A DNA stretch of 64,000 bases from an uncultured Fibrobacterota bacterium (lineage in GTDB: Bacteria; Fibrobacterota; Chitinivibrionia; Chitinivibrionales; FEN-1185). The notes below the pieces were generated by a model, which was not told the DNA's origin, ran no database searches, and saw nothing but the letters and a program-made list of their open reading frames with translations. Made by a program: the position numbers and the translations under genes. Shown piece by piece: positions 16,402 through 58,566 of the stretch; the first letter of the stretch is position 1, and every line of letters starts with the position of its first letter. The stretch is from the NCBI GenBank assembly GCA_963753345.1, contig CAVWBU010000021.1:32001-96000 (forward strand). Reading direction: 5' to 3'.

Positions 16402-16402
16402 G

Positions 16403-18224: not shown

Positions 18225-18279
18225 GGGGTTCCTCTACTTTTAAAATAGTAAACGGCTTGTTGGGTCCCGAACATTCCCT

Positions 18280-19605
18280 TCAAAATTGGACCTGGAAATT
18301 GATCGCAACCATATCGCCGCGCATGGTCACATTTCCGTTTGCGTCAGGCGGTGCACTCTCATAGAGGGATTTCGGCCTTCCGCCTTGCTTGATATAATGT
18401 GCTGCGATTTTAAATCTGTTTTTATTCAGATACCAGTTGAGCCCGGCATCTAAGATGTGGTCGACACCGTTGGGATCAACCACGCTTGCCGCATCGCCGT
18501 CAAATTCGGTGTACATGAGCGCCGGTTCGAGAAACTGGCCCTTGGGAAGCGGAATGTCGTACCCGCCCCTGATATGGTACACCCGGTCCTCAAAGTTTGC
18601 GGCCGGCGCTTTCACGAGACCGCCGTGGTAGGAAATGCCGTTGACGCTGCGGGACATGACATCGTATTCACCATCGACATTGAGCCCCATGAAATTCCCC
18701 ACAAAGTCTCCGCCGAAGCTTCCATTTTTCTGAAAACCGCCGACGTACTTTACAGCGCCGGAATACGTCTTTGTGGCGGCAGCATACTTTACTGCGCTCG
18801 TGTCCCACGTTTCGTCCGTTGCACCCTGATAGCTGTAATGACCGCCGAACGTTATTCCCCTGCGCTGCCCGAAAAAATTGATATCGGGAGAAAGACGGTA
18901 CGAAGGCATGTCCGCATCAAAAAGGCTCACCGCGAGCCGGCCGACCGCCAGCGGATGCCATTTCCGGGGCCCGCCATCCGTTCCGGCAATCAATCCCTGC
19001 GTCGGATCAAATCCTCCAATATTATACGCCACCCCGACAAATTTTGAACCGTAAAATCCGCCGACATTCACGCCGGTTTCACGTCCGCTTGTCCTGCCTG
19101 TTAAAAAGGACCGCAGGTACGTGCTCGTTAACCCTTTGTCAAGAGAATTGACTCCTGCGTCGGGAGCAATGTTCTCATGCCCGCTTTGGGGCCGGAAATA
19201 CCCGAAGGTGATGTTCGCAAACCTTGGTTCAACCGCGTAGGTCATGTACAGGTCGTAGAGCTGGAAGGTGGCGTTCGTGGTGGCCTGGCCGGTGCCCAGC
19301 GAACCCGTGAACTGGTCTTTGCCGAGGTTGTCAAAGGCAAAGATTGTGGAATAGGTCAGGTTCGGGATCGCCTGGCCCTGCACGCCGACCCTGCCTTGTT
19401 TTAGAAAAAGGTCGGCGCAGTTAGAGGTGGCAGGCACATCATTCACATTCCACGTGTATGCCCCCCACACTTGGTACGTTTGTATCAGTTCCAGGTCGGA
19501 TTTTCCGTCGTTGAAGGTAAGTTTTGGCCCTGCAAAGATGGAAGGGGCGGATACGGTAGCCATGATCAGAAAAACAGCTGCAGTACAGACGATACAAGGT
19601 TTCAT
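18280..19605 (-). CDS. Outer-membrane porin-like protein (OprO/OprP-like)
   Basis: Signal peptide, beta-strand pattern, GRETGVNVGG, GLNWYL, C-terminal INFQVQF. Confidence 0.7.
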   Translation of the reverse strand: MKPCIVCTAAVFLIMATVSAPSIFAGPKLTFNDGKSDLELIQTYQVWGAYTWNVNDVPATSNCADLFLKQGRVGVQGQAIPNLTYSTIFAFDNLGKDQFTGSLGTGQATTNATFQLYDLYMTYAVEPRFANITFGYFRPQSGHENIAPDAGVNSLDKGLTSTYLRSFLTGRTSGRETGVNVGGFYGSKFVGVAYNIGGFDPTQGLIAGTDGGPRKWHPLAVGRLAVSLFDADMPSYRLSPDINFFGQRRGITFGGHYSYQGATDETWDTSAVKYAAATKTYSGAVKYVGGFQKNGSFGGDFVGNFMGLNVDGEYDVMSRSVNGISYHGGLVKAPAANFEDRVYHIRGGYDIPLPKGQFLEPALMYTEFDGDAASVVDPNGVDHILDAGLNWYLNKNRFKIAAHYIKQGGRPKSLYESAPPDANGNVTMRGDMVAINFQVQF

Positions 19606-19633
19606 GGTGAGTCCTTTCAGGAAGTTTATGGTG

Positions 19634-20509
19634 TTATTTTTTCACTTTTTGCGGTGAGTTTTGTTTGACCGCCAGCGGTATGAATGACTGCCGGTGAAAT
19701 TTCTCTATGCCGAACTCGGCGATGTATTTCTGGACATCCGGTGAGGTCAGAAAGCCGATGAATTGCATTGCCGCAACGTAATTCACCTTCGGGAACTTAG
19801 CCGGATTTATCGCCATGACATCGTAGTTGGTGAAAAGCTTGGCCGTGTCTTCCACCAACGGCACCAAATCAACGGTCTCCTGCATCTGTGTAAACGACGC
19901 CCACTGGGAAATGAAGTACGCTCGTTTCTTTGCGGCCATGGTCAATGTTTCCGACGTTCCTAACTTTGTTACAATGTACCAGTCGCCCTCCGGTTTTATT
20001 TTTATCATTTTCCAGAGCCGCAACTCCAACATATGCGTGCCGGATGAATCCCCTCTTGAAAAGAAGGTCGCCTTTGCTTTGGCGATCGTTTTCAAGGCCT
20101 CAAGTGCGTCCTTCATGCCCTTGATCTTTGCCGGATCCTCTTTTGGGCCCACGAGCACGAAATCCGAATAGCACACCTGCCGGAAATTCACCGCATACCC
20201 GTCCTTGATGAGCTGCTCCTCTTGCTCCTGGTCATGCCCCATCATAACGTCAATGTCATCAACGTCACTCGTGCCTTGATTGGCCCTGATGAACTTTACG
20301 GCGTCCCCGGTGCAAAGCGAGAGCACCTTGACGGGTATCTTATACTCCGCTTCAAATTTCTTGGCAAGCCCATTTGCCAAGCCCGGCGAAACGCAGGTAA
20401 CGGGGAAGATGACTTTCAATTCCCTTGCAGGATTTTCCGCCGCCTTTAATCCAGGCGACAATGTGAGAAAAAGACTTAAAACTGGCAGGAGAAGAATTCT
20501 TGTGGTCAT
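19634..20509 (-). CDS. TupA-like oxyanion-binding protein with Cys-substituted binding motifs
   Basis: DFVLVGPKEDPAKI, FSRGDSSGTH..ELRLW, NYDVMAINP as in TupA; TTTS is replaced by PVTC. Confidence 0.8.
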   Translation of the reverse strand: MTTRILLLPVLSLFLTLSPGLKAAENPARELKVIFPVTCVSPGLANGLAKKFEAEYKIPVKVLSLCTGDAVKFIRANQGTSDVDDIDVMMGHDQEQEEQLIKDGYAVNFRQVCYSDFVLVGPKEDPAKIKGMKDALEALKTIAKAKATFFSRGDSSGTHMLELRLWKMIKIKPEGDWYIVTKLGTSETLTMAAKKRAYFISQWASFTQMQETVDLVPLVEDTAKLFTNYDVMAINPAKFPKVNYVAAMQFIGFLTSPDVQKYIAEFGIEKFHRQSFIPLAVKQNSPQKVKK

Positions 20510-20563
20510 TAAAACCCCCCTTGTATGAATTGTATGAAAACACGTCGCGACATACGATAGTAT

Positions 20564-20587
20564 CGTAATATAATAAATTATATAACT
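20564..20587. promoter_or_regulatory. ModE box
   Basis: CGTAATATA-N6-TATATAACT, ~55 bp upstream of the tupA-like/porin/modABC run. Confidence 0.8.
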
Positions 20588-20707
20588 GAGCCATAAAGAA
20601 AAATTTGGCCTGAGAAATGCGCTCGGCTCGGTTTTTGACTGCCAGAATGGATTTAAAACGGAATGCTTGGTTCCTTATTCATCTGCAGCATGGTGCTTAC
20701 AATAACA

Positions 20708-21358
20708 ATGCATACCAAACAACCACGCTATGATTTCTTGTATGAGTCAGCGATCCAGCAAGGCTGGTCCGGATGGGGTTGGGATGACCGGCTGGCGAAA
20801 GGCCCTGAACAAGTCGCACGCCTACTTGCTCAGCCGGATGTTCCTCCCAAAGGGAAAGTCCTTGAACTGGGCTGCGGTGAAGGACAACTTTGCAGGCTCC
20901 TTGCTCAACATGGGTATGATGTCACCGGCGTAGATATTTCGTCCGTGGCGATTTGCTGGGCGAAGGAAAAGAACGTTTTTCATCATACTGCTATTCGGTA
21001 TTTCCATGGGGATCTCAGTCGTGCCGACTTTCCGGTGCTGGAACAGTTTGATTTGATCGTTGATGGAAATTGTTTCCATTGCATTTTTGGTGATAGTCGT
21101 CCTGCCTTTCTGAAAAATGTGTATGCGAACCTATCAGATAGCGGGATCTTTTTTGTCAGTAGCTTATGCAGCCAAGATGCAGATAATCATATAATTCTAC
21201 GAGATGGCGAACCATATCGGCATGTTCCAACTTCCGACACTCTGAGAGATGAAGTCCAGCATGCGGGATTTGACGTATTAAATCTGCATATTTACAAGCA
21301 CAGCGAAAGGGATTATAACCATATAAATCTCTTTTGTAAAAAGCGGAACAAAGAGTAA
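20708..21358 (+). CDS. Class I SAM-dependent methyltransferase
   Basis: VLELGCGEG, VTGVDIS, FDLIVDGNCFHCI. Confidence 0.88.
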   Translation: MHTKQPRYDFLYESAIQQGWSGWGWDDRLAKGPEQVARLLAQPDVPPKGKVLELGCGEGQLCRLLAQHGYDVTGVDISSVAICWAKEKNVFHHTAIRYFHGDLSRADFPVLEQFDLIVDGNCFHCIFGDSRPAFLKNVYANLSDSGIFFVSSLCSQDADNHIILRDGEPYRHVPTSDTLRDEVQHAGFDVLNLHIYKHSERDYNHINLFCKKRNKE

Positions 21359-21425: not shown

Positions 21426-22046
21426 CTATTTTTGAAAAACGATCCACGTTCCTGTTTCCCCGCCATCCACGCTCCCTTTTATCCCGAGCTCGTTTAGAAC
21501 CGCCTGGTAATATTCCGGGGAGAATTTCTGCACGCGTTCTTTTCTTCGCTTTTTCCATTCTTCGTTATCGGCGTTGAATTCTTCTACTTCACGCAACAAT
21601 TCGGCGGAACCGAAACCACCACCGATGTAGGCCCAGCCTTTGGGTTTTAAGACCCGCATCACCTCGGAAAGCCCCTTTTTATGGTCTTCCCAGAAGAAGA
21701 TCGATCCGCGGGATGCTACGAGGTCGATGGAGTTGTCGGCAAAAGGCAATTCCTCGGCCCTGCCCTGGCGGGCGCTCATTCTTTTCGCAAGTGATCGAGC
21801 CGCGATATTCTCCCTGGCCACATCAATGCACTCCTGCAGAAGGTCGCATACGGTAACCTGCAAATCCGACTGTTCGGTCAGCGCGATTCCGAGCATGCCG
21901 GGGCCGCCGCCCAAATCGATGCATATGCCTTGTGTAACGCCTGTGCGCTCGATAATCTGCTTCGCTACTAAAGGATAGACCTTTGTCATGGGACCGCGCA
22001 AAGCAGAATCATTATACCTGCGCGCATCCATGTGAAAACTATTCAC
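21426..22046 (-). CDS. Class I SAM-dependent methyltransferase
   Basis: IDLGGGPG, AEELPFADNSIDLVASRGSIFFW, RVLKPKG; GTGA overlap with the SBP gene. Confidence 0.9.
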   Translation of the reverse strand: MNSFHMDARRYNDSALRGPMTKVYPLVAKQIIERTGVTQGICIDLGGGPGMLGIALTEQSDLQVTVCDLLQECIDVARENIAARSLAKRMSARQGRAEELPFADNSIDLVASRGSIFFWEDHKKGLSEVMRVLKPKGWAYIGGGFGSAELLREVEEFNADNEEWKKRRKERVQKFSPEYYQAVLNELGIKGSVDGGETGTWIVFQK

Positions 22047-23089
22047 AGCGGCGGAAGATGTTGGAGGATTCTATCCGCGTCCTGATCCGTGATATTCTTC
22101 CTATATAATTCGGCATAAAATGTTTTCATTTCCTTTATCATGTCCCATTCCTTGAATACCTGAGGATGAAATAATTTCGCCAAATATATCATGAGCAGCA
22201 CGCCTTCGCTGCTCGCATGGTCCCAGGCATACACTCCCATCGGAAGGCGATACACTTTGCCGTCCTTGACGGCCTTCAAGGACGCCCATTGTGGATTTTT
22301 CTTCAGGAAATCCATGGAATCACATAATCCGCTCATAAGAATGATATCCGGATTCCATGATACTATTTGAGCAATGGTGGCTTTCGCATGATTGTCGGTA
22401 AGCGCCTGAGGCAGATACTTGCCGCCGGCAACTTCGGCATTCCAATGCATGACGCTCCCCATTCCTTGGCTGCCGAGCGGATCGTTATGCAAGCCTCCGT
22501 AATACACCGCCGGTCTGTCTTTTTTGTCAAATTTAGATGTAACGGCAAGAATTTGCTTGACCTTTTTTTCGAAATATTTATTGTATTTATCCGCCCGTGC
22601 TTTCGCGTCCGGACCCAGTAGATCACCGAATAAGGTAACCTGCCTTTCAAAATTGTTCATGTAGTCATCAAGGTTCATGGGCCTTTTTTCCGCCGAGAAG
22701 GCGCAAACGGTCTTTACGCCAACGGAATCATACTGCTCATGCTTGGTCATCCCCGGTGTATAGAGCACAAAATCGACCTTCATGTCGGCTACCTGCTTCG
22801 GTTTCATGTCCTTATTCGAGCGGGCGTTTCTAATTTCCGGGAAAAGCTTAAAAGCCCATGGGGACTGCTCCGGCATGAGACAAATGCTGCTTCCCTTGCC
22901 GAGTGTCATGATTTTTTCCGCGGAAACGCAATGCATGCAGGCGATCCGTTGAGGATTGGCCGGAACTTCGACTTTGTTGTCGCACATGTCGGTTATTGTT
23001 TTATATTCTCCTGCGTAAAGTGAAGGACTATGCACACCTATCACGCAGAATACGGCAGATAGAATAACAAGAATATTTCTCTTGTCCAT
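22043..23089 (-). CDS. Class III (FecB/BtuF-type) ABC substrate-binding protein with CxxC
   Basis: ITDMCDNKVEVPANPQRIACMHC, IVSWNPDIIL, WASLKAVKDGKVY; SD AAGGAGG. Confidence 0.85.
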   Translation of the reverse strand: MDKRNILVILSAVFCVIGVHSPSLYAGEYKTITDMCDNKVEVPANPQRIACMHCVSAEKIMTLGKGSSICLMPEQSPWAFKLFPEIRNARSNKDMKPKQVADMKVDFVLYTPGMTKHEQYDSVGVKTVCAFSAEKRPMNLDDYMNNFERQVTLFGDLLGPDAKARADKYNKYFEKKVKQILAVTSKFDKKDRPAVYYGGLHNDPLGSQGMGSVMHWNAEVAGGKYLPQALTDNHAKATIAQIVSWNPDIILMSGLCDSMDFLKKNPQWASLKAVKDGKVYRLPMGVYAWDHASSEGVLLMIYLAKLFHPQVFKEWDMIKEMKTFYAELYRKNITDQDADRILQHLPPL

Positions 23090-23130
23090 CGTAAGACCCT
23101 CCTTGTATTGTTTTATTTTTTGCAAATCTG

Positions 23131-23162
23131 AAAAGAAGCCCCCCGCTTCAAACGCAGGGGCT
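23131..23162 (-). terminator. Putative intrinsic terminator after the TonB-dependent receptor
   Basis: GC-rich stem AGCCCC...GGGGCT followed by TCTTTT on the minus strand. Confidence 0.5.
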
Positions 23163-23217
23163 GTATTCAGACCTGCAAAATCCATAAATCATTTACAAAG
23201 GTATTTGAGTATCAATT

Positions 23218-25404
23218 TCAATCAATATTGAAATTCGTATGGAGGTTGACAAAGAACGTGCGTCCTTCCTCCGGATATCCTGCTTCTAGACAGTAGTTCT
23301 TGTCAAAGGCATTCCTTAGCCCCCCCTCAAGTGATGCGTTTGCACCCAGAGGAACATTTAATGATGCATTCCAGAGAATGAACTCGGGCACTGTGGATCC
23401 CTGGCTTGTCGTATAGCGCCATGTATCGTATTCTACGCTTACGAGGGCATAGCATCCGGTGATCGGCGTATACTTGACATATCCGAGACCTTTTCCCCGA
23501 GGTATATCGGTAAATTTGATCGCTGGGTGAGAGAGGTTGTGTTTGTTGAGATAGCTGCCGTTTGCGCCAATCTCTAACGCTTTCGCCCACTCGAGATCGT
23601 GAAGAACCGTAGCATCAAGACTCAGCTCAAATCCCGGCATTTCAGCTTCACCGGTATTCTGCATCTGTGACCGTGCATTTGCATCAAGTACACCCGCTTT
23701 AATCACGCTGTCAACCGACTGTATCGCATCATATAAATGCGTGTAGAAAAGGCTGACATGGCCGGCTAATGACCATGTTCCCATATTCAATCCTGCATCA
23801 TAGGCCGCCTCACAATTAACGGCATCTTCAGGCTGAAGAGTGGGATTGGGAATCGCGGTGCCCAACTTGTAGGAATATCGGTCTTTGAGCGTCGGGAACC
23901 TTGTCTTACGCGCTATCGATATGCTCGCATTTTGTGAACTACCGATATCAACTGCCGCCTTGCCCTCCGCATTAAACGCTTGGGCGTTGTTGCTGGGGAA
24001 AGGAACTATCGAGTCAAAAACATTCTGAAATATTTTGCCGTTGTAGTGAGAATAGAAATTGTCCGCTTCAACGCTTGACCGGTAGTCGTAAGAAATGCCT
24101 CCTGTCAAGTTAAGAATCTTCAGAATAGTGCCTCCGTCCTCCAAACCAATGGAAAACGTGTTGTCCTTGAAATGCCTCAAAGGCTCCGCCTGATACGGTT
24201 CGCTGTTGGCTACCTTGGCGGTGTCATAGACATTATGTTCTTGATGATAGTCTCGTTTGCCATGAAGAGCGAGACTCATCTCGTTTCCCGGGATAATAGT
24301 AGTACCGAGTTCAACGGCGCCGCCCGCCGTCCAGTCATCATAAGAGCTCATAAAAGAAGACCTTTTCTTGAATGTCGAATAGGTCGAATCGTCACAAGCG
24401 AAAAGGCTGTTGCTCAGTTCGTTATAATAGACCGGAACCTTGAGAGAAAAATCATTTGAAAGCATGGTTTTTGAAGACAGATAGACACTCTGTTTGTCCC
24501 AATAGGGCCAATACCAGTAGCGCACCATACCCGTGGGATCATCGGTCGGCGGGACACCCTTTTCTCCATGTTGATTATCATAGGAGAGTACATATTCATC
24601 ACCTGGCGCGGGATCCCACCCGATTTTTGCACTCGCTTTTGCATCACGGCGATATGAATTTGTGCGTAACCCGCTGCTCTGAAGCGCAGTTGGAGTAAAT
24701 GCTTTCGACAATTCATAATTGCCTTTGTCAAGATCAGAAATCGAGCCCATCAGAAAGAAATTACCCAATCGAGACCCTACGCCTATGTTAATGAGACTGC
24801 CGTTAAAATGGGGCATAAGCGTTGAGTCGCGCTTCGTATCGACATACCCCACAGTGCCCAAATCAGCTTGCAGCTCGAACTTGTGCACCGGTTTCCGGGT
24901 AACCAGATTGATCGCGCCGCCGATAGCATTTGGGCCGTAGAGCACCGAAGAATATCCTTTTTCAACCTTTATTTCCGAATAATCGAATGTCGTGAACCGG
25001 CCCAGATCGACATACCCGTCGTACGGCACATAAATCGGAACGCCGTCTATGTAGAGCGGAACCGACCGCAGATCAAATCCTCGGACATACACCTGCGACT
25101 CGTTTCTTGGACCGATATCGGAGACGTTTACTCCGGGAAGAAGCGAAAGTGCGCGGGCAACATCCGTGCGGTCAAATTCCTTCATTTGTGCACTGGTGAC
25201 AACATCCTTATTCTGTTGTTTTTTTTCGCTGCCTGTGACGACAACGGTTCCAAGCGAAAAGACCGATGATGTATCCGGCTTGAGTGCGCTGTCCTGCGGA
25301 CTTGTACTGGTGCCGTCAGCAGCGCTCGATAGAAATGCATTTACTATAAGGAATAGAGAAAACGGGACTAAAGAGTGATTGATTTTTTGGTGTACACGCA
25401 ACAT
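23218..25404 (-). CDS. TonB-dependent receptor
   Basis: TonB box-like TVVVTG; plug motifs VYVRGFD, LYIDGVP, IKVEKG..SVLYGPNAIGGAINLVT; C-terminal NAFDKNY..GYPEEGRTF. Confidence 0.93.
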   Translation of the reverse strand: MLRVHQKINHSLVPFSLFLIVNAFLSSAADGTSTSPQDSALKPDTSSVFSLGTVVVTGSEKKQQNKDVVTSAQMKEFDRTDVARALSLLPGVNVSDIGPRNESQVYVRGFDLRSVPLYIDGVPIYVPYDGYVDLGRFTTFDYSEIKVEKGYSSVLYGPNAIGGAINLVTRKPVHKFELQADLGTVGYVDTKRDSTLMPHFNGSLINIGVGSRLGNFFLMGSISDLDKGNYELSKAFTPTALQSSGLRTNSYRRDAKASAKIGWDPAPGDEYVLSYDNQHGEKGVPPTDDPTGMVRYWYWPYWDKQSVYLSSKTMLSNDFSLKVPVYYNELSNSLFACDDSTYSTFKKRSSFMSSYDDWTAGGAVELGTTIIPGNEMSLALHGKRDYHQEHNVYDTAKVANSEPYQAEPLRHFKDNTFSIGLEDGGTILKILNLTGGISYDYRSSVEADNFYSHYNGKIFQNVFDSIVPFPSNNAQAFNAEGKAAVDIGSSQNASISIARKTRFPTLKDRYSYKLGTAIPNPTLQPEDAVNCEAAYDAGLNMGTWSLAGHVSLFYTHLYDAIQSVDSVIKAGVLDANARSQMQNTGEAEMPGFELSLDATVLHDLEWAKALEIGANGSYLNKHNLSHPAIKFTDIPRGKGLGYVKYTPITGCYALVSVEYDTWRYTTSQGSTVPEFILWNASLNVPLGANASLEGGLRNAFDKNYCLEAGYPEEGRTFFVNLHTNFNID

Positions 25405-25462
25405 AGGAATCCTTTCAGAAAAGAGTGGTTGAAAATCCCCAGGGTAGTTGCCTGACAAATAG

Positions 25463-25486
25463 CGTAATATGTTTTTTTATATTACG
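25463..25486. promoter_or_regulatory. ModE box
   Basis: CGTAATATG-N6-TATATTACG, ~60 bp upstream of the TonB receptor. Confidence 0.8.
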
Positions 25487-25606
25487 GTGGGTGACATATC
25501 CCTCCTTTGGATAGGTGTGACGAGGATAATTATTCAGAAACTTACAGGTTCACTTTCCGCAGTACGTGTCGTGAGTCCACGTATGGTTTGCGGCATCGCG
25601 CAACCT

Positions 25607-26389
25607 TTAAGACGTCTGCCGAGAATCGGCGCTTCCCGGACCCGCCCCGAGCATTTCAATACTGATTTTCTGCAACGCGCCTTGCGGAGCATGCATGATG
25701 CTGCCTCCACCCATCCCGAAATAGCGAAGGGTTTTTTGCACATCAATAATTCGTGAAGTGCCCAGCCGGTGCAGACCCAATTTGAACAAGACGGGTGTGA
25801 GCGGCACCGTTGGCCCCATGATGACACGGGTTGTTGCGTTAGGGGTCCTGCGAATTACCTCCCCGAACGTTCCGTTCACGAGCGTGAGCCCGGTCATGAA
25901 CACCAGTTTCGCACGGGAAAGCACGGCATGCGAATCGTCCCAATGAATGTCCCCCGGTCTGGGCAGAAGTTCCACAATGGATACCGGCCGCCCTTCATCG
26001 CGCCATATCTCGGCATCATGAAAATGGCCGATAAAACAGGAAGGGTGACTCTTGGTCTGCTCCGAAAACGGGTCTGTTGCCGAGCTTACGCTGAATTCGG
26101 TAACCAATGGGATCACGCATTTCAGGCAGGCCATGCCCACCGCAATCCGAAGAGCATCCGTCGAAGCAAGATGTTCTTCCGCGATTTCCGCTGCCTTCCG
26201 TCCTATCAGATCACCCAGCCAGGTGTCACGGGGGTTTTCGGTGAGTCCGGGAGTGGCTGAGAAGCAGGTTGACATTTCATAGCGCCCGGCTTTGATCACC
26301 ACCCAGTGATGGAATAGATGGATGTCTTCTATCAGAGCCGCATGATCCGTTATGGCGGGAATGAGCGTTTCACGTACAAGCGTTTCCAT
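25607..26389 (-). CDS. DUF364 (Rossmann-like) family protein
   Basis: IGHFH, IVELLPRPGD, FMTGLTLVNGT, IMGPTVPL. Confidence 0.8.
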   Translation of the reverse strand: METLVRETLIPAITDHAALIEDIHLFHHWVVIKAGRYEMSTCFSATPGLTENPRDTWLGDLIGRKAAEIAEEHLASTDALRIAVGMACLKCVIPLVTEFSVSSATDPFSEQTKSHPSCFIGHFHDAEIWRDEGRPVSIVELLPRPGDIHWDDSHAVLSRAKLVFMTGLTLVNGTFGEVIRRTPNATTRVIMGPTVPLTPVLFKLGLHRLGTSRIIDVQKTLRYFGMGGGSIMHAPQGALQKISIEMLGAGPGSADSRQTS

Positions 26390-26431
26390 GGAATTTCTTT
26401 TCCTACATGTCAAACAATGATGCAACTCTAT

Positions 26432-27247
26432 TCATCGGACATCGGCCGGATGCAGCTTCACCATGCGCGCGCCCTGTTTGAAAATGGACCTGTCCCCTCC
26501 CTGAGCCACATGTTGCCAGATTTTATCGGCATCGATAACCGTGGTGCCGGCCAGGGACGCGATTCCTTTGCCGAACCACATAGGGGTCAGCGGAACGCTC
26601 GGACCGACCAGGACCATGCGGGTATTGTGGCCCAGTTCCATGAGCCGTGGCAATGTCTTGTTGGTGAGCGTGACACCGGTCATGAACAGAAAATCCTGAT
26701 CTTCCAGGATGTATTCACAAGCAGGATCCGGGAAATCGCCATCTTGGGGATTCCGTTCCAGGATCGAAAGCCGGCACACGGCCGCTAATTCGTCAAGGTC
26801 CGGAAAGTGGCCCACCACCGTTGCCTTCTTGCCGGTAAGCTCGGGTTTCATGACGACAAAGACACTCTCGTTGACCTGCGACTCCAGTTGCGCCTTCCAT
26901 ATCTTTGTCATTGTAGAAGGCGCATTGACATAGGCGTTGATCGCAGCAACACCAAGGGCCGCCTCGTATGGGTGCCATGACTTGACAAAAGCCGCCAGAT
27001 CACGCAGCCTGCGGCCCTTGAACGCTCCGGCGCCCGAAATGGAGTGGGAACCATGCGGTGGCGTCATGGCGACGCCAACCCCTGCCGAACGCACAAGCGT
27101 CCAGTGAATGCCGACAAGCACGTCGTCGACCATCAGGTCGCCGGGGATCAGCGAAATCAGTTGGTCGTACAACTCCCACTTCGACGAAGCAATCCCTTCG
27201 CCTGACGGGGTGGTGCCAGACGAATGGCGGTCACCAGGGTTTTTCAT
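26432..27247 (-). CDS. DUF364/DUF4213 family protein
   Basis: EAALGVAAINAY, VVGHFP, ILERNP..GDFPD..CEYIL, TGVTLTNKTLPRL, LVGPS. Confidence 0.85.
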   Translation of the reverse strand: MKNPGDRHSSGTTPSGEGIASSKWELYDQLISLIPGDLMVDDVLVGIHWTLVRSAGVGVAMTPPHGSHSISGAGAFKGRRLRDLAAFVKSWHPYEAALGVAAINAYVNAPSTMTKIWKAQLESQVNESVFVVMKPELTGKKATVVGHFPDLDELAAVCRLSILERNPQDGDFPDPACEYILEDQDFLFMTGVTLTNKTLPRLMELGHNTRMVLVGPSVPLTPMWFGKGIASLAGTTVIDADKIWQHVAQGGDRSIFKQGARMVKLHPADVR

Positions 27248-28092
27248 TTCTTCTCCGATTTATCAGGTGTGATGGTTCCCTCCTCGTGCCACGGAAACCT
27301 GAAATGTTCTGGCGTACCTTTGTTGATGAGGAGAATTATCTGAGCCAATATTGCCAAGGCGATCTGCTCTGGAAGATTGTTGGCGATCTTCAAACCTACC
27401 GGCGAGTAAAGCCTGTTGTCAACGCGGACGTTGCGGGAACGGATATTGTTGACGATGACGCCGATTTTCTTCTGGCTGCCGATCATACCGATATAGGGGA
27501 CATCCTTGTTCCGAAGGAGTTGTTCCAGGCAGACTTCGTCGTGAACGTGGCCGTGAGTGAGAATAACACAATAGCTGGCTTGACTGAGCCGGATGGATTC
27601 CGAAAGTGTTTCGTATGGTTTGCACACGCGCTCAATGGCCGTGGGAAAACGTTCGGGAGAAGCGAATTCCGGTCGATTGTCAAAAACGCGGTATGGCATA
27701 TACAGGACTTCGCAAAGCTTGCCAAGCCTTTCGCCGATATGGCCGCCCCCGAATATGACCACCTCGTTCGGCGGGAGTATCGGCTCAATGAATACCGTGA
27801 CCTTTCCTCCGCATATCGACTGAATCGTCTTCTCCGGTGTAACCTGCCATTTGTCGCCCGCCAGGGAAAAATCCAGCGTCTTGCATTTGTCTTCCTTGAT
27901 GGCTGCGAGTGCCTCCTCGCGGCTGATATGTTCCACCGGACCGCCGCCCACCGAACCGGCAATCTCGTTCGCCACGCTTACCACCATCTTGGAGCCCACA
28001 CCCCGCGGCGCGGAACCTTCGGCTTTTATAATAGTTACAATCGCGCAGGCGATTCCCTTGTTCTTCCATTCATTCAAACTCTTGAGCCACAT
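27244..28092 (-). CDS. xdhC: XdhC/CoxI family Moco chaperone
   Basis: GSAPRGVGSKM, GSVGGG, ICGG.V.VFIE, IFGGGHI, THGH..D, YIGMIGS..K. Confidence 0.88.
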   Translation of the reverse strand: MWLKSLNEWKNKGIACAIVTIIKAEGSAPRGVGSKMVVSVANEIAGSVGGGPVEHISREEALAAIKEDKCKTLDFSLAGDKWQVTPEKTIQSICGGKVTVFIEPILPPNEVVIFGGGHIGERLGKLCEVLYMPYRVFDNRPEFASPERFPTAIERVCKPYETLSESIRLSQASYCVILTHGHVHDEVCLEQLLRNKDVPYIGMIGSQKKIGVIVNNIRSRNVRVDNRLYSPVGLKIANNLPEQIALAILAQIILLINKGTPEHFRFPWHEEGTITPDKSEKK

Positions 28093-28147
28093 GGTCGCTC
28101 CTTTCAAATCTGTGAGGATAGGACCGGCGTACGAGATACAGAGGCCC

Positions 28148-28813
28148 TTATTCCAGCCGATACTCCATCGGAAACTTCACCATGACCCGCACAGGTGGAC
28201 GTGGAAACGGGGCCGCCCGCCTGATCGTGGACACGGCATCCTTGTCGAGTATCGAAGCCCCCGATCCCTTGAGTATGTCAATATTCTCAACTCCGCCGTC
28301 TTCGCGCACACAGAACGAGAGATAGACCGTGCCGGAGATTTTCATTTCGAGCGCTATGGGCGGATAAACTGCTTTACGGTAGATGATGTCACGGATGTAT
28401 TCGAACTGCTCCTTAAAGTACCGTTGCCGCTCCTTCTCCCGGACTTGACCCGTGTCCTGTGGCATTCCTATGGGGCCGATCGAGGCAACCTGGACCGGCT
28501 GATCGTCCACTCCGCTTGACTCGGCATCCGCAAACTGCGCCGTTTCGGCAATGGTATCTTGGGCAGTCGTGTCGGGAAATGCCTCTTCTTCCTTTACCGG
28601 CGGAGGGGCGGGCCTTCTGGTGTGCCGGAGAGCCGGTTCCGGCAGGGAGACCGTCGATGCCGCCGTCGGTATCACCGGCGATTTCTCGATGCTGAAATCG
28701 ATCGTGAGCGTGCGCGCCGCCGGAACAGAAAACGCCGCAAGGCCGGTCACGGCGGTGATGAAAACCCCGTGGATCGCCAGGGACACAAGCGTTGCACGTT
28801 TCTCATACGTCAT
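28148..28813 (-). CDS. tonB: Energy transducer TonB
   Basis: N-terminal SxxxH TM helix, Pro-rich linker, YPPIA...GTVYLSF...LDKDAV..IRRAAPFP. Confidence 0.88.
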   Translation of the reverse strand: MTYEKRATLVSLAIHGVFITAVTGLAAFSVPAARTLTIDFSIEKSPVIPTAASTVSLPEPALRHTRRPAPPPVKEEEAFPDTTAQDTIAETAQFADAESSGVDDQPVQVASIGPIGMPQDTGQVREKERQRYFKEQFEYIRDIIYRKAVYPPIALEMKISGTVYLSFCVREDGGVENIDILKGSGASILDKDAVSTIRRAAPFPRPPVRVMVKFPMEYRLE

Positions 28814-29190
28814 CGCTTGGACTCCGTTTGCAGACTGACCCGGGTGAATCCATCGGTCTTAATAACATCGAGCACGTTCACGAACGTCTGAAGGGCAATG
28901 TTCCTGTCCGCGCGGATAAGGATCGGTGTGGACCGATCTATGTTCCTGAGCGCCTCAAACAGCGCCCGCTGACACACGGGAACGGCATTGTAGTAGATCG
29001 TGCCCGTGCGGTCGATTTCGACCGTCTGTATCCGCAGCAGGTCCTCCCGGTTCCTGGATGCCTGCGGCAACTGCAACGGGATGGATCCTGCCGCAACCAG
29101 CGTTGATGTGGTAAGTACGATGGTCAACAGCACCAGCATCACGTCAACGAACGGTATCACGTTTATATAGTCGAATTCTTTCTCATCCAT
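28810..29190 (-). CDS. exbD: Biopolymer transporter ExbD
   Basis: [26 protein letters not shown]. Confidence 0.92.
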
Positions 29191-29614
29191 GATGAATGTC
29201 CCATTCAAGGAGCAGTCTCTTGACTTTTCGCAATAGGAAATTATACAGTACCACGGACGGAATTGCGACAAGCAGGCCGACCGCGGTCGCCTTGAGCGCC
29301 AGGGCAAGGCCCACCATGATTCTGCCCGTATCCATGAATCCCTGGTTGCCCAGAGTGTAGAATGTCAACATGATGCCCAGCACCGTGCCCAGCAGGCCCA
29401 CATACGGCGCGCTGCTGCCGATGGTGGCGATTATGTGAACCCGGGACGTCAGCATGAGTTCCAATTCCTTCCTGTTGGTGAAGTCGCCGGGCCGGATGCG
29501 GCGGTACGTGAGCCACCGTTCGATCGCCACGCTCACCGAGACCACGCTGAGCAATACCAGAAGTCCGACGATTCCGTAGTCGATCGCGAATTTCAGCCAT
29601 TCCATAGTTTTCAT
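29183..29614 (-). CDS. exbB: TonB-system energizer ExbB (short type)
   Basis: [33 protein letters not shown]. Confidence 0.92.
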
Positions 29615-29635
29615 TCCTTCGCCCGCATAGGGCGT

Positions 29636-30718
29636 TCAATGCGCAAGCGCCCGGTCCAGCAGTTCCGCGCATTCCGTGTCGCTGAGCTTTTTGAAATAGA
29701 ACAGCTCGTAGAACCGCTTGGTTTCGGCGCGCATGTCAAGTTTCATCCGGTCCGGATAGAGCAGGTTGGTCAGCCACCGCAGACCGATGATGCGATTGAC
29801 GGACGGCGGCCTGTCGAACCAGCCGAAGGGCAGCGACGGTATCTCGTACACCTTCTTGTTCTTTACGGCATCAAGAATCTGCCACGCGGGGTCGGACATG
29901 ATTTTGGCGAAGTTTTCCGTGCCGTGAGCGAACCCATGATCAACCTGCACGATGATCGTCTCCGGTTTCCATAGCAGCAACTGCTCGAAGGAGACGGCGG
30001 CGCGGCCGTACCCGCGCACCATGGGTACATCGGCCACATTATCTCCGCCCACCATGTCAAGCACCTCGGCATGCATTGACCCCTTCGGGTCCGTTTCCAA
30101 CCCGTTGAGTCCTTCGGCGTAGTAAACCCGTATACGCTTCTGCGCCGGTACCGATGCGGCAACGGCGACGACCGTATCGAGGGTCTGCCGGCAATATCGG
30201 GCAAGGGTATCGGCGCGACGTTGTTCACCGATGAGGGCGCCAACAAAGCGGTACGATGTGTCAAGCGATGTCAGCCGGCCATCGACCATGATCACCGGCG
30301 TTCCAAGTTGCTTCTCCATGCGCTCCGCCGCGGAAATGTCGGTTTTGTCAAGATACCCCATCGACAGAACGATGTCGGGTTTCGCCTTGATGATCACTTC
30401 GGGGTTACCGGTGGTGCTTTTGCCGAACCACCCTCCGAGCAGCGGTTTTTTATTGTACTCCTCAACAAGGAATCGTCGTTCGTCCGCGTCCGGGTTCCAG
30501 GTTGTGCCGGTAATTTTCGCCGGCGCCAGCGTGTACATCATCACCTCGCCCATCGGCGACGTCGAGTAGACGGACCGGATGGTAGCGGGGACAGTGACAT
30601 GGCGGCCTGCCATGTCCACGATGGTTCGTCCTGAAGGAGACGCGGCCCAGCAGATGCCCGCCGAAAGCGCCGTGAAGACCAGCAGCGGAGTCATCATTCG
30701 CAAATTCCTGTTCGTCAC
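29636..30718 (-). CDS. Class III ABC substrate-binding protein
   Basis: IVDMAGRHVTVP, VSFEQLLLWKPE, AVKNKKVYEIP..PFGWFDRPP; SD GGAGG before GTG. Confidence 0.88.
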   Translation of the reverse strand: MTNRNLRMMTPLLVFTALSAGICWAASPSGRTIVDMAGRHVTVPATIRSVYSTSPMGEVMMYTLAPAKITGTTWNPDADERRFLVEEYNKKPLLGGWFGKSTTGNPEVIIKAKPDIVLSMGYLDKTDISAAERMEKQLGTPVIMVDGRLTSLDTSYRFVGALIGEQRRADTLARYCRQTLDTVVAVAASVPAQKRIRVYYAEGLNGLETDPKGSMHAEVLDMVGGDNVADVPMVRGYGRAAVSFEQLLLWKPETIIVQVDHGFAHGTENFAKIMSDPAWQILDAVKNKKVYEIPSLPFGWFDRPPSVNRIIGLRWLTNLLYPDRMKLDMRAETKRFYELFYFKKLSDTECAELLDRALAH

Positions 30719-31491
30719 ATCGCACCTCCTAGGGCCGGAACGCACAAAAAGCGGCCTTGTGCCACCGAAACAATGTCAACGTCAATCCCGTACATTCTTT
30801 TGAGCAGCGCGCAGGTCAGCACCTCCTTGGGCGGGCCGTCGGCCGCTACGCGGCCGTCCAACAGCGCGATCACCCGCGTGGCGCATGCGAATGCGTGGTC
30901 GGGGATGTGGGTTGTGATCATTACTCCCATGTTGCCGGTTGCGAGTTGCCGGATAAGGTTCAACGCCCGGATCTGATTGCCGAAATCAAGATGCAACGTG
31001 GGTTCGTCCATGATGAGAAATTGCGGCGACTGCGCCAGCGCGCGTGCAATCAGCACCAGTTGGCGTTCGCCCCCGCTTATCTGCGCGTAGTTGCGTTCGG
31101 CCAGATGGCCGATATGCAACAGGTCCATTACGCGCGCCGCTTCGAGCCTGTCGTGGTGCGAGGGAATGGAGAAGGCGCCGATAAAGGGCGTCCTTCCCAT
31201 GAGAACAACATCAATGGCGCTGAAGGGAAAAGGCGGGATGTGGATCTGGGGGACATAGGCCAGAGTCCGTGCTCGTTCCCTCGTCGTAAATGTTCGCGCC
31301 GGCCGCTCATCGAAGTGGATATCGCCGGACGAGGGAATGAGCCCGAGAATCGCCTTGAAAAGCGTGGTTTTGCCCGAGCCGTTGGGTCCCAGCAGGCAGA
31401 CGACCTCGCCCGAACACAACGATGCGTTGATTTCCGAAACAACCGTGCGCGAACCGTATCCCGCCGATATGTTGTGCATCGCCAATTTCAT
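30715..31491 (-). CDS. Type II ABC importer ATP-binding protein (FepC/MolC-like)
   Basis: GPNGSGKTT, ISGGERQL, IMDEPT.HLDFGNQ; ATGA overlap with the permease. Confidence 0.9.
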   Translation of the reverse strand: MKLAMHNISAGYGSRTVVSEINASLCSGEVVCLLGPNGSGKTTLFKAILGLIPSSGDIHFDERPARTFTTRERARTLAYVPQIHIPPFPFSAIDVVLMGRTPFIGAFSIPSHHDRLEAARVMDLLHIGHLAERNYAQISGGERQLVLIARALAQSPQFLIMDEPTLHLDFGNQIRALNLIRQLATGNMGVMITTHIPDHAFACATRVIALLDGRVAADGPPKEVLTCALLKRMYGIDVDIVSVAQGRFLCVPALGGAM

Positions 31492-32651
31492 ACCCACCCC
31501 CTGCGCCCCCGGGCGAGCAGAAATACGAAAAACGGCGCGCCGATGATCGCGGTCAGGATGCCGATGGGTATTTCGATGGGGAACGCGACGCGCGCTACGG
31601 TGTCGACGAGGAGCAGGAACGCACCTCCCAAAAGCAGCGATGCTGGGAGCAGCACCGGGAAAGAGGGGCCCACAAGCATGCGGGCCAGGTGCGGCACCAC
31701 CAACCCGATCCAGCCGATCATGCCGCTGATGGACACCGCCGCGGCGGTCATCAATGTTGAAGACACGATCGCGATAGCCCGAATCCGTCCCGCGTCCACT
31801 CCCATGGCCTTGGCTTCCTCGTCGCCGAAGGAGAGCACATTGATGCGCCACCGCACGAGCAGCAAAGGGATGGCGCCCGCCAGGGTCGCGATTGCGGCGA
31901 TGCGGGCGTCGGATATGTTGACAGATGCCAGGCTTCCCATAAGCCAATAGGTGATCGCTGGTAGCTTTGAGTAAGGATCGGCGACGTACTTGATAAGCGA
32001 CAGAAGGGCGGAAAACAGGGTACCGGTCACGATGCCGCACAGTACGAGCGTCAATGTCTTTTCGCCGCGCTTTCCGACAAACGCGGACAGCGTGACCGTG
32101 GCAAACACCGAAACAAGGCCGAAGGCGAAAGAAAAAAGCTGGATCCCGATCACCCCGACCGAAAGCAGTATCGCCAAGGCTGCGCCGAAAGCCGATCCCG
32201 CGGTGACGCCCAGCAGAGAAGGATCCACCATGGGGTTGCGGAATATACCTTGGTAGCACGCACCAGAACCCGACAGGGCCATGCCAACAAGAACGGCCGC
32301 ACACATTCGTGGCAGACGGACATTGAACAAAACGGTGTGGCTTGCACCAAACGCCATGGTGTCATGGTGCCGCAGGGCGTTCCACACTAGGCGCAGCAGT
32401 TCGCCGATACTGACGGGGTAACGTCCGACTGTCAGGGCGACCACGGAAATCACGCATAGTGCGATGGCCAGCCCCGCCAGGATCAGGGGTCCCTTCGCTC
32501 CCGGGGAATTGACCGACTGATTTGTCTTGTCGCCGCCGGTTGCTTCATGCATCTCTGCAGCTCGGGAAGTTGCCGATTGTGAATTCGCTGGGCCTGAGTC
32601 GTGCCGAGGATCAGTCTTGACAGCCGGATCATGTGTCAAATTCTGGGTCAT
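31488..32651 (-). CDS. FecCD/BtuC/MolB-type ABC permease
   Basis: VRLPR, FRNPMVDP..LGV, GMIGWIGLVVPH, EIPIGILTAIIGAPFF. Confidence 0.92.
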   Translation of the reverse strand: MTQNLTHDPAVKTDPRHDSGPANSQSATSRAAEMHEATGGDKTNQSVNSPGAKGPLILAGLAIALCVISVVALTVGRYPVSIGELLRLVWNALRHHDTMAFGASHTVLFNVRLPRMCAAVLVGMALSGSGACYQGIFRNPMVDPSLLGVTAGSAFGAALAILLSVGVIGIQLFSFAFGLVSVFATVTLSAFVGKRGEKTLTLVLCGIVTGTLFSALLSLIKYVADPYSKLPAITYWLMGSLASVNISDARIAAIATLAGAIPLLLVRWRINVLSFGDEEAKAMGVDAGRIRAIAIVSSTLMTAAAVSISGMIGWIGLVVPHLARMLVGPSFPVLLPASLLLGGAFLLLVDTVARVAFPIEIPIGILTAIIGAPFFVFLLARGRRGWV

Positions 32652-32665
32652 TTATTTTCGCCGTT

Positions 32666-33211
32666 TCAATTTACCGTGTAGTAGCTGCCCAACGAGCACG
32701 CCATGCATACCGGCCCTTTTTTTCCGATTGTGTCCTTGCCGTCGAACACCCTTTCTCCGCACACAACGCAGGTGACAACCCGCTTGGGCTTGCCGGGCAT
32801 CTCTTCGGGCCGCAGGTTGACCCTCACTTCCCGCCATGCGAGCATCTCCTCATCCGGGATGTAAAGCGCCTGCCGGACCGCGCTTTCGTCTTCATTGTTG
32901 ATCGTGCGCTCCATGGCGATGTTCAGACGCCAGGAATGGTTCGTGGTCACATTCATGAATGTCGCGGCCATCCTCCCATAGTCCTTGAGTTTGAAGCTCC
33001 GCCGTCCCAGGCGAGTACCGGTGACCGTCTGGATTGCGTCGGCGATGCAGCGGTCGTTCTCCACCACGACGATCAGGTCTTTGTAGGTGGCCGGCGCCGC
33101 CAGCGACAAACCCTTGACGGCAAGGCGCACGCCCAGCACCTGCCCCATGCACAGGTGACCATGATAAGCTATGCATTTGTCAAGCAGCTCTTCGAGTTTG
33201 GGGTCTTTCAT
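32666..33211 (-). CDS. FmdE/FwdE family protein with C-terminal Zn finger
   Basis: YHGHLCMG, ENDRCIADAIQ..TG, CVVCGE...CMAC. Confidence 0.9.
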   Translation of the reverse strand: MKDPKLEELLDKCIAYHGHLCMGQVLGVRLAVKGLSLAAPATYKDLIVVVENDRCIADAIQTVTGTRLGRRSFKLKDYGRMAATFMNVTTNHSWRLNIAMERTINNEDESAVRQALYIPDEEMLAWREVRVNLRPEEMPGKPKRVVTCVVCGERVFDGKDTIGKKGPVCMACSLGSYYTVN

Positions 33212-33293
33212 GCCATCTCCTTTTTCATCTGTTAAAGGCTTAAATATTGATATGTGATGAAAATCAATATAAGAAAAACAGGCCAAGGATTTT

Positions 33294-33317
33294 CGCTATA
33301 TAAACTAATATACAACG
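33294..33317. promoter_or_regulatory. ModE box between divergent fmdE and TSUP genes
   Basis: CGCTATATA-N6-TATACAACG, flanked by TTT/AAA. Confidence 0.8.
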
Positions 33318-35522: not shown

Positions 35523-36326
35523 TTACTCGGTTACCGCAAGAATAACCTGTGAGGCGTTGAACAACGCGCACACATCACTGCCTTTAGATAGTTTCATGTC
35601 TTCCGCGCTTTGTTTTGTTATGGTGGCGACGACGGTCTTGCCGCCGCTCAGCTTTATTTTTATCTCATCGTTCACCGCGCCCGTGACGATGCCGGATACT
35701 TTACCGCTCAGGCGGTTCATGGCGCTCGTTTTGGTTTTTTCATCATCAACCATGAGGATCACTGCCGGTGCCTTGATAAGCGCCATCGCTTTCCCGCCCT
35801 TCAGGAGATTAAGCTCCCTGGCGCTTTCATTGGTGATCACCGCGGTTATGGTGTCCTTCTCGCTGATGCGTAAAACGACTTCGGCCGACACCGGACCGTG
35901 AATGACTTTTTCAATGATGCCGGAGAACTGATTGCGCGCGCTGGTCTTCAAGATAAGGCTCCTAGTAAAATCGGTGAAAAAAGCAAAATCATTTTCTTTC
36001 CCGGACAAGGTTTTTGTGAAAACTTCGAATTGCCCCTTGTGGTGATCATACTCATCGAGGATCCTTTTGCCATAGTCGGACAGCCTGCATCCGCCGCCGT
36101 GCCTGCCACCGGTGCTGGCGACAACGAGCGGTTTCGACGAAAGGTTGTTGAGCCTGTCGATAAGGTCCCAGGCGGTCTTGTAGCTGATGCCGGTTTCCTT
36201 GGCCGCCGACGTTATTGATCCGAGTTTGTCAATGCTCTTAATGAGTTCGAGCGCGTTTTTTTCGAGCAGGTGGCGCCCGCCGAACAGGAGCCAGAGGGGG
36301 CCGGAATAGGGGGAATGGTCTGCCAT
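35523..36326 (-). CDS. modE: Molybdate-responsive regulator ModE (wHTH plus 2 TOBE)
   Basis: GSITSAAKETGISYKTAW, TGGRHGGG, KTSARNQF, TSAMNRL. Confidence 0.93.
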   Translation of the reverse strand: MADHSPYSGPLWLLFGGRHLLEKNALELIKSIDKLGSITSAAKETGISYKTAWDLIDRLNNLSSKPLVVASTGGRHGGGCRLSDYGKRILDEYDHHKGQFEVFTKTLSGKENDFAFFTDFTRSLILKTSARNQFSGIIEKVIHGPVSAEVVLRISEKDTITAVITNESARELNLLKGGKAMALIKAPAVILMVDDEKTKTSAMNRLSGKVSGIVTGAVNDEIKIKLSGGKTVVATITKQSAEDMKLSKGSDVCALFNASQVILAVTE

Positions 36327-36457
36327 GCTTTTAAACCTTTTGAAGAATCCAAATGTCCTTTTCAAAGAAAATAGTCTTGTCCACGTTTCGAAACAATATC
36401 CGCAATGACAAACCGGGAAAGTTTCATAACGAAGACATGCAAAAAATGACAGACAGG

Positions 36458-38675: not shown

Positions 38676-38948
38676 GCGGTTTCGCGCGCATAGGCAACAA
38701 AATGTCGATGCCTTGTCGTGATCGCTTAATGGTACCCGTTGTGCTGGCATGCCTTGCTTGCATCAAGGACGGTAACGTTCTTTGCTTCATATTGTTTGAT
38801 CGCATGTCCCCCGCATCACTGAAGAATACTGCCGACCAAGCCTACGGAGGCAAGCCGGAATTTGCCAACAAGGTGATTACAATTATTGGAATTCATACAG
38901 CCGGAACATAATTTGATATTAGCATATGCCAGAAACTCAGGGAGCCCC

Positions 38949-58545: not shown

Positions 58546-58566
58546 ACGAACTACGCTTCCCTTTTG

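Follow-up and report, generated by a model that had tools for sequence, protein, structure and literature searches.

In the textbook scheme, molybdenum (Mo) and tungsten (W) enter the cell by diffusion through porins, followed by transport through ModABC, TupABC or WtpABC. The stretch of DNA analysed here (the window; 64,000 nucleotides (nt) of contig CAVWBU010000021.1, assembly GCA_963753345.1, from an uncultured Fibrobacterota bacterium) carries modD, modABC, the gene of a Mop protein, a tupA-like gene and a full-length modE; adjoining them is a cluster of two operons that combines a TonB-dependent outer-membrane receptor (TBDR), an ATP-binding cassette (ABC) importer resembling MolBC, and proteins of the FmdE, DUF364 and XdhC families. 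The cluster is best explained as a second Mo/W uptake route, repressed by ModE, energised by TonB and with an inner-membrane part of MolBC type, a reading to which we give an even chance of being right. A literature search, molybdophore literature included, found no description of this system in a coverage that left out most subscription journals.

Among the described systems, MolBC-A (HI1470/HI1471/HI1472) of Haemophilus influenzae is built from the same three kinds of component as the importer of the cluster (FecCD-type permease, ATPase, class III binding protein), and its first two components are the best solved relatives of those found here. MolBC-A carries free molybdate or tungstate with low affinity and its expression is repressed by molybdate (PMC4031551); the cluster, in turn, is predicted to be ModE-controlled. 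The differences are that here the importer is joined to a TBDR, to ExbB-ExbD-TonB and to FmdE, XdhC-like and DUF364 proteins, that its first solute-binding protein (SBP1) resembles MolA weakly, and that the low affinity of MolBC-A contrasts with the scavenging suggested by a TonB-coupled route. As for the ModE-ModABC regulon of Escherichia coli and other bacteria, the likeness lies in the operator type (consensus CGnTATATA-N6-TATATAnCG), in a full-length ModE with two Mop domains and in the adjoining boxed modABC; the regulon here, however, appears to add an importer of TBDR type and secreted proteins at two further sites, and no genes for molybdenum cofactor (Moco) synthesis or nitrogenase were found in this genome.

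In the archaeon Methanococcus maripaludis, a DUF364 gene lies inside the modABC operon (modA-modB-DUF364-modC), which is cofit with nifH, with polar effects possible (bioRxiv 10.1101/2024.03.05.583561), and fmdE is the locus tag next to this operon (PMC10390477). DUF364 and FmdE accompany a Mo importer there too, but that importer is a type I ModABC, and the system comes with neither an outer membrane nor a TBDR or XdhC-like gene. The BtuB-BtuFCD and TonB-dependent siderophore systems have the same combination of TBDR, class III binding protein and type II ABC importer; they differ in being under a cobalamin riboswitch or Fur, as opposed to the ModE boxes of this locus (where no Fur-box search was made), and the permease here resembles MolB far more than it does BtuC, HmuU or FhuB. 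CntOLMI and CntKLM-ABCDF-E, as generally described, resemble the cluster in placing a receptor, an importer, one or more enzymes that use S-adenosylmethionine (SAM) and a possible exporter under one metal sensor; here, however, there is no gene like nicotianamine synthase or opine dehydrogenase, the exporter is not conserved, and the regulator senses Mo/W and not Zn. Finally, Orf5 of the bonnevillamide cluster and both DUF364 proteins of this locus fall into one Pfam family; Orf5 is a secondary-metabolite enzyme of Streptomyces and provided, in 2026, the first DUF364 enzymology, the cyclisation of 4''-methyl-SAM to an azetidine carboxylate (PMC12930334).

Organization of the Cluster and Its ModE Boxes

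The original prediction had placed thirteen genes in two ModE-boxed groups, from fmdE to a pair of DUF364 genes and from a TBDR gene to a methyltransferase gene. Content and order were confirmed for all 13, each on the minus strand and in two adjoining operons, as were the boxes ahead of both operons; a correction was required for the reading frame of exbB. Operon 1 runs from 33211 to 25607 with ten genes, whose neighbours abut or overlap, and operon 2 from 25404 to 21426 with three:

33294-33317: ModE box 1, CGCTATATA-N6-TATACAACG, 15 of 16 consensus positions, predicted operator of the fmdE operon
32666-33211, minus: fmdE, FmdE family, 181 aa (PF02663, E 8.5e-25)
31488-32651, minus: FecCD-family type II ABC permease, MolB-like (PF01032, E 2.6e-82)
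30715-31491, minus: ABC ATPase, MolC-like (PF00005)
29636-30745, minus: SBP1, periplasmic class III binding protein (Peripla_BP_2) with signal peptide (PF01497)
29183-29614, minus: ExbB, short form, 143 aa (PF01618, E 7.4e-29)
28810-29190, minus: ExbD (PF02472, E 8e-22)
28148-28813, minus: TonB (PF03544, E 4.7e-16)
27244-28107, minus: XdhC-like protein, XdhC_CoxI plus XdhC Rossmann domain (PF02625, E 8.5e-18; PF13478, E 9.7e-32)
26432-27247, minus: DUF364 paralogue a, DUF4213 plus DUF364 (PF04016, PF13938; 3l5o, E 1.2e-47)
25607-26425, minus: DUF364 paralogue b (PF04016, E 5e-27)
25463-25486: ModE box 2, CGTAATAT-N8-ATATTACG, 13 of 16 consensus positions
23218-25404, minus: TBDR, 728 aa, with signal peptide (plug domain PF07715)
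22043-23185, minus: SBP2, second class III binding protein, Peripla_BP_2 (PF01497)
21426-22046, minus: class I SAM methyltransferase (PF08241)

The start of fmdE is the ATG at 33211, with an AAGGAG ribosome-binding site in front; the ATPase ATG at 31491 overlaps the stop of the permease gene, the exbD ATG at 29190 overlaps the exbB stop, and the methyltransferase gene overlaps that of SBP2 by 4 nt. The longest open reading frame at the exbB position (29241-29672) was rejected as an out-of-frame artefact overlapping the true ExbB frame. The two DUF364 paralogues are about 30% identical to each other. None of the 13 frames is interrupted, and identity to the sister genome's proteins is 81-90%.

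Box 1 lies 83-106 nt upstream of the fmdE ATG, its other side facing a divergent TauE-family gene, and box 2 lies 59-82 nt upstream of the TBDR start codon. Each operon has an operator-type inverted repeat in its promoter region, and the positions are conserved in relatives: that of box 1 is matched in L001, L017 and L019, and a box precedes the TBDR gene in L001, L012, L014, L015, L016, L018, L019 and L024. When the 4.5 Mb assembly was scanned with the consensus, nine matches of at least 13/16 positions were found, four of them within the window; a position weight matrix (PWM) gave five sites of at least 29.9 bits in the genome, the next best scoring 16.9, and again four of the five strong sites were in the window. 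These four were training sites of the matrix, and the fifth, C24:310913, was independent of the training. Because only five strong sites exist in 4.5 Mb and four of them fall in the window, the boxes are, on sequence grounds, non-chance sites. The matrix built from this genome alone also returned 14 matches of at least 18 bits in 780 kb of FmdE-centred metagenomic loci, as against one in one mononucleotide shuffle. A weak -10-like TATATT (33312-33307; a consensus match only) lies inside box 1; the counts of the promoter and terminator scan did not rise above shuffled sequence (15 vs 10.8 ± 2.6; 13 vs 15.0).

Conservation in the Phylum and in Metagenomes

The phylum was searched in 296 genomes, a set that includes G253 (flagged unpublished), used for counts only; seven of them, this genome counted, have relatives of DUF364a. 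The core set of TBDR, FmdE, FecCD permease, ATPase, SBP1, XdhC-like protein and at least one DUF364 protein is present in 7/7 of these cluster genomes, SBP1 being conserved in every copy, and the order of the genes is shuffled, with at least five different orders among the seven. Because gene content is constant while order is shuffled, there is good evidence, by comparison of the genomes, that the cluster acts as one functional unit. The modE gene adjoins it in all seven, and a ModE-type box precedes the TBDR gene in six, G284 having none at the threshold used; the idea, from the original prediction, of one Mo/W (ModE)-controlled unit built for TonB-dependent import is supported by the boxes and by the adjoining modE. 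A FmdE-DUF364 fusion suspected in G284 (a 452-aa open frame) was discarded, because each gene is read in its own frame, the long open one being a GC-rich artefact.

The closest named relative, a Fibrobacteres metagenome-assembled genome (MAG) from a fen, has the same cluster in the same order, and a contig scan with DUF364a returned a single locus, that of this sister MAG. There, boxes stand before fmdE, the receptor gene and the modA operon, and both SBP2 and the methyltransferase are missing. SBP2 and the SAM methyltransferase have no orthologue in the six other cluster genomes (L001, L012-L016); among the cluster genomes they are specific to this one, and their inclusion as pathway parts in the original prediction is not supported.

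Regarding metagenomes, a scan seeded with a FmdE alignment was evaluated on the best 80 of 114 confirmed loci, scored by tblastn against the window proteins (E ≤1e-8; matches covering less than half of the query dropped); many loci are near-duplicates, so that the counts overstate independence. DUF364 directly follows FmdE in 51 of the 64 loci with at least 800 bp downstream, and of the 59 that reach 800 bp or more upstream, 32 have a multi-pass membrane protein of ∼205 aa ahead of FmdE. In the 25 loci whose flanks both reach 4 kb or more, DUF364 is found in 21 cases, FecCD in 13, SBP1 in 12, TBDR in 10, the XdhC-like protein in 7 and the membrane protein in 11. FecCD and the membrane protein never occur together, 24 of these large loci carrying one or the other and one neither; in 10 the cassette has the membrane protein only. 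Relatives of the SAM methyltransferase lie near FecCD or SBP genes in 4/25, and five large loci (L066, L070, L087, L088 and L089) have FmdE, FecCD and ExbBD-TonB without DUF364.

The ∼205-aa membrane protein had no Pfam or NCBIfam match, and a protein atlas grouped it with the S components of energy-coupling factor (ECF) transporters (score 0.94; TM 0.71-0.73 to PF09819 clusters); this offers only a lead that it may be ECF S-component-like. Conserved three-gene cassettes of this protein (HLPGPGAG motif), FmdE and DUF364, in that order, were located in L029 (9182-9808), L034 (9169-9798), L043 (9175-9786), L055 (9154-9813) and L062 (9142-9795). That of L055 adjoins a regulator with a helix-turn-helix (HTH) and a PBP_like domain (PF12727), and in L039 a PF00384 enzyme follows the cassette.

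The Importer, the Receptor and the Proposed Route

Of all solved structures, HI1471/MolB (2nq2_A) is the best relative of the permease (246.9 bits, E 3.7e-72), ahead of a heme permease (173.6), FhuB (165) and BtuC (128), while HI1470/MolC (2nq2_C) is that of the ATPase by a small margin (133.7 bits; next 122.1). The MolB-like character of the permease makes it more likely that a small oxyanion crosses the inner membrane than that a siderophore-sized complex, a cobamide or Moco does. As for the binding proteins, the best PDB match of SBP1 is 4pag (4e-52), and the matches of SBP2 include 4ovk and, weakly and over the C-lobe only, MolA (1.6e-13, 53.8 bits); siderophore, heme and Ni-chelate binders are also found among the PDB neighbours of the two. 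Among solved binding proteins with a nameable ligand, MolA is presumably the best match of both. The TBDR scored far below all NCBIfam subfamily cut-offs (best TIGR01785, 95.9 vs 316.85) and is classed, by these models, outside the curated receptor subfamilies for B12, heme and siderophores; its likeness to solved receptors is confined to the plug, with CntO among the weak PDB matches. The complexed cargo of the original prediction, which had itself named binding of free oxyanion only, as by MolA, as an outcome contrary to it, is not supported, given that permease and ATPase are nearest to those of MolBC-A, a carrier of the free oxyanion (PMC4031551).

In the proposed mechanism, ModE would repress both operons when Mo/W are plentiful. 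During shortage, the TBDR, powered by its own ExbB-ExbD-TonB, would concentrate the scarce metal species into the periplasm, where SBP1 would capture them; the small species that the MolBC-type (type II) ABC importer would then bring into the cytoplasm is most likely the free oxyanion. Here the FmdE-DUF364 pair and the XdhC-like protein would receive and handle the metal, either by carrying it on Cys/His residues or by a reaction that depends on SAM or a nucleotide, and SBP2 with the methyltransferase would be add-ons specific to this genome.

FmdE, DUF364 and XdhC-like Proteins

FmdE has the motifs HGHLCMGQ and ENDRCIADA and a C-terminal CxxC...CxxC zinc finger, with invariant Cys and His residues across 47 sequences. 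The features of the family are all present, namely the FHGHxC motif, the second Cys motif and the treble-clef zinc finger, and most family members are reported to adjoin genes of metal-ion transporters (PMC2954224).

DUF364a contains both domains of its family, the enolase-N-like DUF4213 and the Rossmann-like DUF364. In DUF364, a Gly-x-Phe loop and a Glu are invariant, and such a combination would be typical of nucleotide- or SAM-binding Rossmann folds. The structure paper of 2010 listed W, Mo, V and Fe transport genes as neighbours and proposed a role in the synthesis of chelating compounds (PMC2954201). Given that the FmdE-DUF364 pair occurs with three kinds of importer (the MolBC-type one, the ECF-S-like protein and the methanogen ModABC), the two proteins more likely act on the metal after its entry than unload a TonB-specific carrier; the original prediction, in which they release TonB-imported cargo, therefore finds no support on this point.

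As regards the XdhC-like protein, it has both domains of the XdhC/PaoD family, its PDB matches are 2we7 and 3on5, and it falls below the curated XdhC cut-offs (TIGR02964, 117 vs 161.6; NF045664, 200 vs 350). Moco binding is said to be established for the XdhC of Rhodobacter capsulatus. Here, neither a client enzyme of the xanthine dehydrogenase (XDH) family nor a Moco pathway was found in the genome, and the XDH family is absent from 7/7 cluster genomes; a role of the XdhC-like protein as Moco chaperone to an XDH-type enzyme is excluded in these genomes, and the Moco maturation assigned to it in the original prediction fails.

Mo/W Users in the Host and Its Relatives

This genome is a MAG, 94.3% complete with 4.8% contamination, so that a missing contig is possible. 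No match was found in it for NifD/K, Mo-bisPGD enzymes (PF00384), tungsten AOR (PF02730), XDH/CODH (PF02738), sulfite oxidase (PF00174), MOSC (PF03473), the MoaA C-domain, MoaC or MoeA, in enzyme-family searches that matched in 3 to 11 of 14 control genomes. Two PF00142 matches were dismissed as short P-loop matches of a model positive in 14/14 controls.

Across the seven cluster genomes, the MoaA C-domain was above cut-off in none, MoaC was absent from the six tested (G039 left out), MoeA was present in one (60/296 in the phylum) and NifD/K in four (103/296 in the phylum; related genomes are not independent); strong PF00384 matches occurred in two (G039 and G294) and AOR in one (G294). A nitrogenase link was dropped, there being no clear enrichment of NifD/K in cluster genomes, and so was a Moco link, MoeA showing no association with the cluster. 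G294 (L012; 95% complete, ∼330 contigs) combines a tungsten-AOR-type gene with a PF00384 enzyme and gave no MoaA, MoaC or MoeA match; either its Moco genes are unassembled or it depends on an imported cofactor or precursor. In the host genus (six genomes), MoeA and NifD/K are both 0/6, modA is kept in 5/6 and modE in 3/6, and two retain the complete cluster. In this genome, modE, modABC, mop, modD and the tupA-like gene are all intact.

A DUF134 gene (38886-39398) precedes that of a Nitro_FeMo-Co protein of NifX/NafY/orange-protein type (39395-39760, 75 bits). This is the only such domain in the genome; modE is 3 kb away, no ModE box is near, and by analogy with the Desulfovibrio orange protein we take the protein to be a possible binder of a Mo cluster. 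Because the mod genes are kept, the cluster is intact, no known Mo/W enzymes are found and this lone domain lies close to modE, it may be conceived that in the host genus the Mo/W of the ModE regulon serves a function using neither a pterin cofactor nor FeMo-co, with FmdE, the DUF364 pair and the XdhC-like protein as a SAM- or nucleotide-dependent assembly or carrier line. We consider this improbable; if true, it would be an unrecognised form of Mo/W biochemistry.

Alternative Explanations

Several points weigh against a TonB-energised second uptake route for the oxyanion. We know of no TonB-dependent receptor that takes a free oxyanion, and of no ligand for 4pag, the best solved relative of SBP1; the match of SBP1 to MolA (3psa; 5.7e-12, 48.5 bits) is weak and limited to the C-lobe (residues 168-351). 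That a TBDR stands next to what looks like an ordinary ModABC route points to a substrate that is different or bound, and ModE control is read from sequence only. Because the host has no recognisable Mo/W user, the purpose of the uptake is left unexplained; the sister genome G062 (98% complete) likewise had no match for NifD/K, AOR, the XDH family, MoaA, MoaC or MoeA, and one partial PF00384 match. Besides, the low affinity of MolBC-A in H. influenzae is at odds with a scavenging role (PMC4031551), and the one DUF364 enzyme characterised so far serves biosynthesis, as a SAM cyclase (PMC12930334).

In one alternative, Mo/W would enter as a thiometallate or attached to organic matter or a foreign chelator, with FmdE, DUF364 and XdhC stripping or recycling the carrier. 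Chelates are the usual cargo of TBDRs and class III binding proteins, and the PDB neighbours of the SBPs include siderophore, heme and Ni-chelate binders; moreover, ModABC is already next door, this genome has two different SBPs for one permease, and the closest named relative comes from a fen, where free molybdate should be scarce. The permease, however, is clearly MolB-like and not BtuC-, HmuU- or FhuB-like, and the association of FmdE-DUF364 with the methanogen ModABC and with the ECF-S-like protein means that their job is not tied to a TonB carrier. The thiomolybdate version was set aside, since in M. maripaludis the DUF364-bearing mod operon shows a lower level, and not a higher one, on tetrathiomolybdate (MoS4) (PMC11484787). 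Overall, import of bound metal is a possibility that we rate as rather unlikely. A self-made molybdophore, on the model of pseudopaline and staphylopine, would instead have the DUF364 pair build an aminocarboxylate from SAM, perhaps with the XdhC-like protein and the methyltransferases, a TauE protein export it, and the TBDR and the ABC importer take it back. Formation of an azetidine carboxylate from a SAM derivative is the same carbon chemistry as that of nicotianamine-type ligands. The layout of receptor, synthase, exporter and metal sensor parallels cntOLMI, with CntO among the weak matches of the TBDR, and the invariant DUF364 loop and Glu would suit a Rossmann fold of the nucleotide- or SAM-binding type; the characterised enzyme cyclises a SAM derivative (PMC12930334), and on its account the statement of the original prediction that the window has no biosynthetic cluster is not assertable. 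The exporter-like TauE gene across box 1, present here and in L001 and L017-L019, was nevertheless not found in L012-L016, nor is any other exporter conserved; five large metagenomic loci have FmdE, FecCD and ExbBD-TonB but lack DUF364, 10 of the 25 have the cassette with the S-component-like protein only, a MolB-like permease suits small substrates, and the methanogen DUF364 sits with ModABC, a binder of the free oxyanion. Hence, the molybdophore appears distinctly unlikely to us.

Salvage of preformed Moco, of a tungsten cofactor or of a pterin precursor, with XdhC as cofactor chaperone, would draw on the Moco binding reported for the XdhC family, and it would fit the lack of MoeA in six of the seven cluster genomes and of a MoaA C-domain above cut-off in all of them, as well as G294, which has AOR-family and PF00384 enzymes yet no detected MoaA, MoaC or MoeA. 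We give it hardly any credence: PF00384, PF02730, PF02738, PF00174 and PF03473 are all negative in this genome, no cluster genome has the XDH family, and the permease is MolB-like. Very unlikely, too, is an ordinary importer of iron, nickel or cobamide that only happens to adjoin the mod genes, or a decaying, functionless remnant. The automatic family names do point to iron, heme or B12, and the host has no known Mo/W user; but the ModE boxes and modE stay with the cluster even where loci are rearranged, the window showed no riboswitch, all 13 frames are intact with high identity to the sister genome's proteins, and modA is kept through most of the genus.

Neighboring Genes and Other Features of the Window

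The mod genes and the remaining ModE boxes of the window are the following:

15517-20587, minus: ModE-boxed operon of tupA-like gene, 441-aa secreted protein, modA, mop, modB and modC
20564-20587: ModE box 3, before the tupA-like/mod operon
35523-36365, minus: ModE regulator, full-length, HTH plus two Mop/TOBE domains (domain matches)
51498-51521: ModE box, 16 of 16 consensus positions, the best in the genome

Box 3 contains a likewise weak -10-like TATAAT, and a second methyltransferase gene (20663-21358, plus strand), with TPMT/TehB-type matches, diverges from the tupA-like operon across it. The putative porin of the original prediction, a 441-aa secreted protein (18280-19605) encoded between the tupA-like gene and modA, carries a signal peptide and matched nothing in Pfam or NCBIfam; its counterpart in the sister MAG, 86% identical, is directly behind a ModE box.

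The box at 51498-51521 is flanked by a Fib_succ_major lipoprotein-type gene (50466-51221, minus strand) and by the gene of a secreted fn3/SdrD_B/CarboxypepD_reg protein (51659-53074, plus strand); downstream of the former are genes for a DsbD_2 membrane protein and a 446-aa protein of no assigned role. The fifth strong site of the genome, C24:310913-310936 (6914-6937 of locus L097; 29.9 bits), lies upstream of three genes for proteins of 203, 477 (with a FlgD_ig domain) and 181 aa, none a known Mo/W enzyme. Surface or secreted proteins of no assigned role appear to belong to the ModE regulon.

As for the rest of the window, an Rfam scan returned one tRNA only and no cobalamin or other riboswitch. 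The tRNA gene (13966-14054, minus strand) is beside an open reading frame (13126-13752) with only the N-terminal SAM-like domain of phage integrase, and the two may be the trace of a former integration event bordering the Mo island. At 57173-63553 there is a cluster of 2-hydroxyacyl-CoA dehydratase/benzoyl-CoA reductase type, with an HGD-D component, a BcrAD/BadFG activator ATPase and several ferredoxin-like proteins.

Implications

If the TonB-energised route is real, it would explain how anaerobes of peat and sediment, where the free oxyanion is very scarce, are supplied with Mo/W. The cluster ties three families of no settled role, FmdE, DUF364 and this XdhC-like branch, to one testable process, the structures of FmdE and DUF364 having been available since 2010. 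In addition, hosts that keep the uptake regulon without a known Mo/W enzyme make the purpose of the metal directly addressable.

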